Assembly (NCBI RefSeq): GCF_003334815.1
Contig: NZ_QOWO01000013.1
DNA: 64,000 bases
Source of the DNA: Escherichia coli
GTDB lineage: Bacteria; Pseudomonadota; Gammaproteobacteria; Enterobacterales; Enterobacteriaceae
Direction: 5' to 3' (one strand)
Shown here: one piece after another, positions 19,270 through 22,509 of the stretch
Position numbering within the stretch: position 1 is the first letter of the stretch
Layout: each line of letters opens with the position of its first letter
Program-made: the position numbers and the translations under genes
Notes under the pieces: generated by a model
What the model saw: the letters and a program-made list of their open reading frames with translations, nothing else
The model's database searches: none
What the model was told of the DNA's origin: nothing

Positions 19270-21034
<1,765 letters not shown>

Positions 21035-21379
21035 AGTAAATAGCTGACTTATGGATGTGCTGGGGATTCTATGTATTTAGCTGTGGCTTTACCATTACTT
21101 TTCCCGTTTTTGACTTAAATAGCTTCAGTTTGGTCTGATCTGCCGCTACATCTTCTTTTTTTTGTATTTTTATGCGATTCATTGAAACTCGGCCCCATTT
21201 TCAAATCTACATAGGCCGTACTGACATTATCGAAATGCTATTTTTTATCTATTTGATTTTTATGATTAAAGTATATTTTGTGTATAAAAATCATTCGGGT
21301 CGGATTGCTGCGAAAGAAATGATACACTAGCACGTCAAAGTAAGTGCGTTATCAGTATTCAGGTAGCTGTTGAGCCTGG

Positions 21380-21391
21380 GGCGGTAGCGTG
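21380..21391 (+). promoter_or_regulatory. ops element (GGCGGTAGCGTG) in the JUMPstart-like leader of the waaQ operon
   Basis: Exact 12-nt ops consensus on the coding-sense strand, 48 nt upstream of the waaQ GTG. Confidence 0.8.
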
Positions 21392-21438
21392 CTTTATTCT
21401 GCTTAACTTAACCAGACAATCACACAAAAGAGTCGCTA

Positions 21439-22509
21439 GTGGAAAAGCCATTTCGAAAAATCCTGGTCATAAAGATGCGATATCATGGGGATATGTTATT
21501 AACTACTCCTGTCATCAGTACGCTCAAGCAGAATTATCCTGATGCAAAAATCGATATGCTGCTTTATCAGGACACCATCCCTATTTTGTCTGAAAACCCG
21601 GAAATTAATGCGCTCTATGGGATAAGCAATAAAGGTGCGGGAACTTTCGATAAAATTAAAAATGTGCTTTCGTTGATAAAAACTCTGCGTGCGAATAATT
21701 ATGACCTGGTCATTAATCTTACGGATCAGTGGATGGTGGCGCTGCTGGTACGTTGTTTACCTGCACGGATGAAAATATCGCAACTTTATGGTCATCGGCA
21801 GCATGGTATTTGGAAAAAAAGCTTCACACACTTAGCGCCAATACACGGTACACATATTGTTGAGCGTAATTTATCGGTCCTTGAGCCATTAGGTATTACC
21901 GATTTCTACACCGACACAACAATGAGTTACGCCGAAGATTGCTGGAAGAAGATGCGCCGGGAATTAGATGCCCTGGGCGTAAAAGATCATTATGTTGTCA
22001 TCCAACCGACAGCGCGTCAGATATTTAAGTGTTGGGATAACGATAAATTTTCTAAGGTTATCGATGCGCTGCAACAGCGAGGCTATCAGGTTGTGCTAAC
22101 CTGTGGGCCCTCGGCAGATGATCTCGCTTGTGTAGATGAGATTGCACGAGGTTGCGAAACAAAACCCATTACTGGCCTTGCAGGTAAAACACGTTTTCCT
22201 GAACTGGGTGCATTAATTGATCATGCAGTGCTTTTTATTGGTGTGGATTCTGCGCCGGGACATATTGCAGCGGCAGTGAAAACGCCAGTCATTAGTCTAT
22301 TTGGTGCAACGGATCACGTATTCTGGCGTCCCTGGACCGAGAATATTATTCAATTCTGGGCGGGGAATTATCAGAAAATGCCGACCCGGCATGAACTTGA
22401 CCGCAACAAAAAATATCTTTCTGTTATCCCAGCGGAGGATGTGATCGCCGCTACGGAAAAGCTGTTGCCAGAAGATGCCCCTTCAGCTGACAGGAATGCA
22501 CAATTATGA
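21439..22509 (+). CDS. waaQ: LPS heptosyltransferase III WaaQ (GT9)
   Basis: ORF track 356 aa from GTG 21439; first in-frame ATG is 21475 (344 aa), see findings. Confidence 0.88.
   Translation: MEKPFRKILVIKMRYHGDMLLTTPVISTLKQNYPDAKIDMLLYQDTIPILSENPEINALYGISNKGAGTFDKIKNVLSLIKTLRANNYDLVINLTDQWMVALLVRCLPARMKISQLYGHRQHGIWKKSFTHLAPIHGTHIVERNLSVLEPLGITDFYTDTTMSYAEDCWKKMRRELDALGVKDHYVVIQPTARQIFKCWDNDKFSKVIDALQQRGYQVVLTCGPSADDLACVDEIARGCETKPITGLAGKTRFPELGALIDHAVLFIGVDSAPGHIAAAVKTPVISLFGATDHVFWRPWTENIIQFWAGNYQKMPTRHELDRNKKYLSVIPAEDVIAATEKLLPEDAPSADRNAQL

Follow-up and report, generated by a model that had tools for sequence, protein, structure and literature searches.

The leader of the waaQ (rfaQ) operon and its ops site have been characterised for about thirty years, and the waaQ ops serves as a standard model for NusG-family anti-termination. 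RfaH loads onto RNA polymerase paused at ops by contacting the non-template strand, which is exposed there, and does not leave the enzyme along the operon, where it excludes NusG, counters Rho and, at poor ribosome-binding signals, recruits the ribosome via S10 (PMC3905879, PMC9765446). Recruitment of RfaH at ops sites in leaders has been described, ChIP-seq in CFT073 gave an RfaH signal on rfa, two K-12 operons are targeted through ops, and filaments of H-NS-StpA cover every RfaH target (PMC9765446). The waa locus is regulated by RfaH, the detergent sensitivity of rfaH mutants has been attributed to lost waa expression, and alleles of rho, nusG and hns act as suppressors of rfaH phenotypes (PMC5449661). 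Passages in reviews from the discovering laboratory, drawing on Klein et al. 2016, further describe a 73-nt RNA, RirA, that lies in the waaQ 5′ UTR, contains both ops and JUMPstart and has a start site in common with the waaQ mRNA; according to the same passages, overproduced RirA binds and inactivates RfaH (PMC5736990, PMC6358824, PMC8745692). The waaQ JUMPstart/ops leader with rirA is, in short, already known and well characterised, and its ops switch lets E. coli express the LPS core operon despite Rho and H-NS silencing.

Here we compare with this background a 64-kb stretch of E. coli DNA (the window) that carries a K-12-type waa locus, the core type being that of K-12 (waaQ, then waaG, waaP, waaS and waaB). 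Open reading frames and family matches agree with the earlier note both on the gene identities and on the divergent arrangement, in which a 404-bp spacer (21035-21438, G+C 0.371) separates waaA-coaD from waaQ. On the − strand, waaA (kdtA), encoding the Kdo transferase, is a 425-amino-acid frame at 19757-21034 that matches NF004385 over its full length (905.7 bits) and is named waaA in all E. coli matches; coaD, the second gene of that operon, follows at 19270-19749 (TIGR01510 match, with the K-12 annotation carried over). On the + strand, waaQ (21439-22509), encoding heptosyltransferase III (356 amino acids, GTG start; NF007742, 682.1 bits), heads the long waaQGPSB... operon. Over 701 bases spanning the spacer, identity is 99.7% with E. 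coli K-12 MG1655 and 99.9% with several natural isolates. Alignment of the spacer with that of K-12 shows only two differences: one A is absent at the start of a T run, between 21155 and 21156, and a T is changed to A at 21396 (+62 of the waaQ transcript), in a U-rich tract 5 nt past ops. On the K-12 map rfaH lies well outside the 64 kb around waa that the window covers; K-12, to which the DNA is 99.7% identical, encodes the gene. We are highly confident that the region is a divergent LPS-core control region whose waaQ leader carries the ops/JUMPstart element that loads RfaH. In this reading the elements, their positions, their conservation and the Rfam match come from our own analysis, whereas the literature supplies the start site, the pause, the occupancy by RfaH and dependence on it, the activity of RirA and the coating by H-NS; which sequence is the −10 element and where the waaA promoter lies are points that we infer.

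The ops element reported by the earlier note is present as an exact 12-mer, GGCGGTAGCGTG, in the orientation of waaQ (+ strand) at 21380-21391, and is the sole match in the window when up to one mismatch is allowed. The same search, with one mismatch allowed, gave at least one match in 27 of 100 shuffles, so that counting the bare motif gives weak evidence. What decides the matter is the covariance-model match to JUMPstart (Rfam RF01707) at 21353-21391 on the + strand, which scores 55.2 bits against a gathering score of 35, covers model positions 1-38 of 38 (E = 6.4 × 10−10 for the whole window) and is the only Rfam match within the 64 kb. This match includes a 5-bp hairpin at 21360-21378. Across 119 JUMPstart copies, the stem pair that our search pattern did not constrain is T-A in 86, A-T in 17, G-T in 8 and G-C in 3; it is pairable in 96% of these copies, compared with 61.5% expected if the two positions were independent, although the copies are phylogenetically related. 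These frequencies support the view that compensatory change maintains the hairpin, the relatedness of the copies making them supportive rather than a formal test.

Could the 12-mer have arisen by chance, or as a coding-type copy, and lack any regulatory function? The 27 shuffles with a one-mismatch match speak for such an origin, as does the octamer GGCGGTAG, the 8-nt core of ops, which occurs 7 times in the window compared with about 1.5 times expected from shuffles. However, the copy at 21380-21391 is the only exact 12-mer and the only non-coding copy in the window; it sits within the JUMPstart match; it does not vary among 5,413 E. coli genomes or between genera, and its spacing from a conserved −10 element is fixed; and RfaH occupancy of the waaQ operon has been published (PMC9765446). 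A chance origin is effectively refuted, and we give it next to no probability. ChIP and genetics in the literature, together with the JUMPstart match, likewise uphold the proposal that ops acts here as the RfaH loading site of a long LPS operon.

The six further copies of GGCGGTAG, at 2123, 10486, 16312, 34848, 50641 and 54892, were considered as ops sites and rejected: all are intragenic, differ from the 12-mer by 2-4 mismatches and stand outside any JUMPstart. Ops-like sites inside coding regions are reported to be free of RfaH (PMC9765446), and the extra copies are probably a coding-sequence effect rather than RfaH sites.

The start of waaQ transcription is placed at 21335 by transfer from several sources, namely the RefSeq annotation, reviews, a supplementary table and the name of a pause. 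The rirA gene of NC_000913.3 (b4760; 3808166-3808238, − strand) corresponds to window positions 21335-21407 on the + strand, where 72 of its 73 nt are identical to K-12, so the RfaH-interacting RNA constitutes the first 73 nt of the waaQ leader. A genome-wide table of start sites gives the rfaQ start as 3806261(−), numbered on an older K-12 record, and puts a predicted MarA box, TGTATCATTTCTTTC, 16 nt away (PMC12052159 Table S2). In the window this box is found as the complement of 21312-21326 (centre 21319), which places the tabled start at 21335 as well. The offset between the two versions of the K-12 record, 1,977 bp by their lengths, is cross-checked only by the position of this box. Position 11 of ops is the known pause position of the element. 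With +1 at 21335, the T at ops position 11 is 21390, or +56, and coincides with an in vivo NET-seq pause named rfaQ56U (PMC11077087). The earlier note had raised the case of a start downstream of ops, which would leave the site untranscribed; with the start at 21335, ops occupies +46 to +57 of the leader and is therefore transcribed. The untranslated leader measures 104 nt, with the GTG at +105, and no open reading frame runs over ops.

A generic scan for sigma-70 promoters and terminators over 20900-21600 returned nothing, and no canonical −35/−10 pair was found there. Our own, more permissive promoter scan yielded an extended −10 element, TGATACACT (TG-A-TACACT), at 21320-21328 on the + strand, with a predicted start at 21335. 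Judged by sequence only, this element has the features of a sigma-70 extended −10, with a TGn motif directly 5′ of the −10 hexamer and about 7 nt between it and the start. From this position and from conservation, we infer that TGATACACT is the −10 of the waaQ/rirA promoter. A further motif, TCGGAT(T/C)G at 21300-21307 (−36 to −29 relative to the waaQ start), is conserved across genera of Enterobacteriaceae and is unlike a −35 hexamer.

Scanning species-representative genomes with a plain pattern for the JUMPstart/ops core identified at least 120 loci across Enterobacterales, and among the loci listed 23 lie directly upstream of a waaQ homologue. In 18 of these 23 listed loci, from other species and genera, a TGnTAYAMT motif ends 50-57 nt before ops (51 nt in the window), with TACACT, TATAAT and TACAAT as variants of the hexamer, a spread that a −10 element would be predicted to tolerate. 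The distance from ops to the GTG in the listed waaQ loci is 35-49 nt (47 nt in the window), leaving out as spurious the values for L034 (2 nt) and L077 (22 nt), which were produced by the automatic start finder. A divergent waaA is found in 13 listed cross-genus loci, with spacers of 372-411 bp and a G+C content of 0.365-0.437, and the divergent waaA/waaQ layout, as read from these genomes, recurs in other Enterobacteriaceae. Cross-genus majority fractions are 0.84-0.98 over 21035-21115, 0.42-0.65 over the centre of the spacer, and 0.75-0.98 over 21295-21395; a value of 0.76 at the T-tract island discussed below derives mainly from Escherichia and Citrobacter. In five loci that are Pectobacterium-like or Symbiopectobacterium-like, JUMPstart/ops and the GTG start are retained, the promoter region is different and waaA is not adjacent.

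Within E. coli, alignment of five spacer alleles shows a mosaic of conserved and variable blocks. The approximately 90 bp next to waaA (to about 21123) are nearly invariant, 21124-21155 varies among the alleles, the sequence at 21187-21283 in the K-12-type allele is essentially unrelated to that of the other alleles, and 21284-21397 is again nearly invariant. The latter block, on the + strand, comprises the upstream motif, the extended −10, the start site, JUMPstart and ops, and constitutes a conserved waaQ control block of 114 nt that is present at ≥90% identity in 5,413 of 5,426 complete E. coli genomes; at least one natural isolate (H46; NZ_CP025903.1) has a copy identical to that of the window. 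The WaaA protein is identical in K-12, O157, the commensals AREA_R505 and SCU-101, and JMF1. Because WaaA is thus identical across core types, the left edge of the core-type-specific divergence, and with it that of the hypervariable waa cassette, falls within the spacer at about 21124, some 90 bp away from waaA.

The start codon of waaQ is annotated differently in different records: the curated K-12 record NC_000913.3 uses an ATG at 21475 (344 amino acids), whereas PGAP uses the GTG at 21439 (356 amino acids). The GTG is conserved in all listed cross-genus loci, the position of the ATG is occupied by CTC or CTG in the Pectobacterium-like loci, and the NF007742 model aligns with the protein from residue 1 of the longer form. 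A weak Shine-Dalgarno-like AAGAG (21428-21432, + strand) stands 6 nt before the GTG and recurs in 17 of the 21 listed cross-genus waaQ loci with a placeable start (18 of 22 when the window is included), with GGAAA in the Pectobacterium-like group. Among E. coli alleles, changes in the 12 codons between GTG and ATG are synonymous or conservative, a pattern typical of coding DNA, and the sequence just upstream of the GTG contains a 2-nt indel. These comparisons favour the GTG and suggest that the curated K-12 start is probably placed 36 nt too far downstream. The distance of 48 nt from ops to waaQ given by the earlier note is correct if waaQ begins with the GTG at 21439, from which ops is separated by 47 nt, and, since the GTG is favoured, uses the better-supported start.

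The series of events that we propose on this basis would begin at a sigma-70 promoter with the extended −10 TGATACACT, from which waaQ transcription would start at 21335. The 104-nt leader carries the JUMPstart hairpin (21360-21378), with the ops 12-mer (21380-21391) next in line, and RNA polymerase would pause at T11 of ops (21390, +56), where ops bases on the exposed non-template DNA strand would recruit RfaH. Remaining on the polymerase, RfaH would exclude NusG, suppress pausing and Rho-dependent polarity, and help to recruit ribosomes to the poorly signalled GTG start of waaQ; transcription would thereby run through the long, AT-rich waaQ operon with its expected coat of H-NS/StpA. The first 73 nt of the leader would also exist as RirA, which would inactivate RfaH when overproduced. 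The other half of the spacer would drive waaA-coaD from a promoter in the conserved stretch of about 90 bp beside waaA.

The leader may have a further function, as the ops RNA is predicted to pair with an upstream arm in an extended hairpin (21342-21394, + strand) that is followed by a U-rich tract at 21395-21400, the tract that contains the T to A change at 21396. This hairpin looks terminator-like and might relate to the production of RirA. Under such a scheme, polymerase that has not been modified by RfaH would stop early at an attenuator and release RirA, RfaH-modified polymerase would read through, and the change at 21396 would weaken the stop. This idea is an addition to RfaH loading, not an alternative to it, and we think it unlikely. 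In its favour, RNAalifold on 18 distinct waaQ leaders recovers the extended stem, with 96.9% of cells paired compared with 29-53% for slid partners, and changes in the 5′ arm (U to C, G to A and A to G) do not break the pairing with ops, which itself is invariant. In 16 of the 18 waaQ leaders ops is followed by a T-rich tract, though the 119 JUMPstart copies differ in sequence at that place, and a discrete 73-nt RNA with the 5′ end of waaQ exists. Against it, the simple terminator scan of 20900-21600 was negative, and the fold, with a minimum free energy of −22.5 kcal/mol, is only modestly more stable than shuffles (z = −1.95). Covariation in the stem is weak; only 4 of 500 shuffles reached its score, but related sequences can attain such a level without constraint. 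The stem is closed by A-U and G-U pairs, and between the base of the stem (+60, 21394) and the annotated 3′ end of RirA (+73) there are 12 nt, a longer distance than intrinsic termination usually shows. Moreover, the conserved 5′ arm could have been selected as DNA instead. If the attenuator were real, failed RfaH loading would make an RNA that inactivates RfaH, and the T to A at +62 would shift the balance. A fuller proposal, in which the waaQ leader is an RfaH-sensitive attenuator with RirA as its terminated product and thus a self-limiting loop whose balance is altered at +62, and in which, separately, the T-tract island and TCGGAT(T/C)G may bind a regulator, we regard as distinctly unlikely.

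Loading of RfaH at a transcribed ops remains our account of the waaQ side. On the waaA side, the conserved block at 21035-21123 (− strand) contains a candidate waaA promoter and three predicted MarA boxes. In our own scan the candidate consists of TGGTAA (complement of 21089-21094), a 17-nt spacer and TAGAAT (complement of 21066-21071), with a predicted start near 21059, and it is there that the waaA transcript would begin. A waaA::lacZ fusion whose fragment corresponds to 21032-21195 gave about 114 Miller units, compared with about 5 for the empty vector, and MarA binds the waaA-side region in vitro without a regulatory effect (PMC12052159). Genomic SELEX reported sigma-70 holoenzyme binding in the spacer and flagged the spacer for H-NS (PMC3946193).

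The same table of start sites that gives the rfaQ start also lists a second start near 21102 on the + strand, in the waaQ direction (PMC12052159 Table S2). It lies about 67 bp from the waaA start codon, within the waaA-proximal block, and suggests either overlapping divergent promoters or an upstream waaQ-directed transcript.

Two hexamer pairs printed in the SELEX table were treated as pattern matches only. CTGACA-16-TTTTAT, though listed for waaA, points in the waaQ direction and falls within the non-conserved centre (21221-21248), and TCTACA-17-TTTATT had no exact match.

The suggestion in the earlier note of multiple promoters and nucleoid-protein binding is consequently documented in part. 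Holoenzyme binding, the H-NS flag, the second + strand start and the active waaA::lacZ fusion all bear it out, and multiple promoters in the spacer are plausible; however, the large H-NS/StpA-dependent occupancy domain has been reported over the body of the waaQ operon, with waaQp outside it.

The AT-richness and T-tracts described for the spacer are evident in its base composition. The G+C content is 0.371 in the spacer, compared with 0.482 in the window and 0.539 in waaA, and reaches its minimum in 100-nt windows across 21150-21349 (0.26-0.32; 0.278 for 21150-21300); a run of 8 Ts occupies 21156-21163. The AT-rich centre at 21187-21283 (G+C about 0.26-0.30) is allele-specific, with unrelated sequence at this place in alleles of other core types, and a sensitive blastn search found it in 467 of 5,426 complete E. 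coli genomes. To its left, an island of 31 bp with a T-tract, TTTTTTTGTATTTTTATGCGATTCATTGA (21156-21186), shows no difference among the five E. coli alleles even though both of its flanks are unalignable, and is kept in Citrobacter and in part in Kosakonia. Our promoter scan found no convincing promoter hexamers in the island, and inspection by eye for IHF-like and promoter-like motifs gave nothing convincing. In E. coli JMF1 (NZ_CM139231.1; L007, 1757-2454), an IS1 element lies within the variable centre of the spacer, and the waaQ promoter/JUMPstart block is intact.

One might suppose that the centre and the island are not spacer DNA but a dedicated switch, operated by a nucleoid protein or a transcription factor, that co-regulates both operons. 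The low G+C content (0.26-0.32), the H-NS flag for the spacer in the genomic SELEX table (PMC3946193), preservation of the island between unalignable flanks, conservation of TCGGAT(T/C)G at −36 to −29 and the in vitro binding of MarA on the waaA side (PMC12052159) are all consistent with this possibility. Yet most of the centre is unconserved even within E. coli (467 of 5,426 genomes), an IS1 insertion in it is tolerated, MarA binding is without regulatory effect (PMC12052159), the large occupancy domain is reported over the operon body with waaQp outside, and a literature search for binding data on the island gave none. We therefore consider a dedicated switch possible but doubtful, and regard the AT-rich centre as poorly conserved, allele-specific spacer DNA. 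The TCGGAT(T/C)G motif and the 31-bp island, considered by themselves, may be binding sites for some regulator.

Taken together, these results indicate that a true regulatory signal was recognised from raw sequence alone and that existing data answer the start-site test attached to it; by-products of the analysis are the evidence on the waaQ start codon and a block-by-block map of conservation in the spacer. The closest known system is the K-12 waaQ (rfaQ) leader with rirA (b4760), which has the same promoter, start site, JUMPstart, ops, start codon and flanking genes as the window, and from which the window differs by the absent A (21155/21156) and by the T to A at 21396. The JUMPstart/ops leaders of other RfaH-dependent operons (rfb/O-antigen, kps, hly and tra; RF01707) resemble that of the window in having the 39-nt element, with a 5-bp hairpin followed by GGGCGGTAGCGTG, in the 5′ untranslated leader ahead of a long operon for a surface structure. 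They differ in that the second stem pair of the window is the minority A-U form (17 of 119 copies), compared with U-A in 86 of the 119, and in that waaQ leaders usually have two additions that are generally missing from other JUMPstart operons, a T-rich tract directly behind ops and, upstream, an arm that is complementary to ops. NusG-family, DNA-signal anti-termination, with lambda Q at its pause site as an example, is a general parallel: a factor contacts non-template-strand DNA to load onto promoter-proximal paused polymerase and from then on accompanies the enzyme (PMC3905879). RfaH is distinct in being a fold-switching NusG paralogue that needs ops rather than a sigma-dependent pause and that also couples translation via S10.
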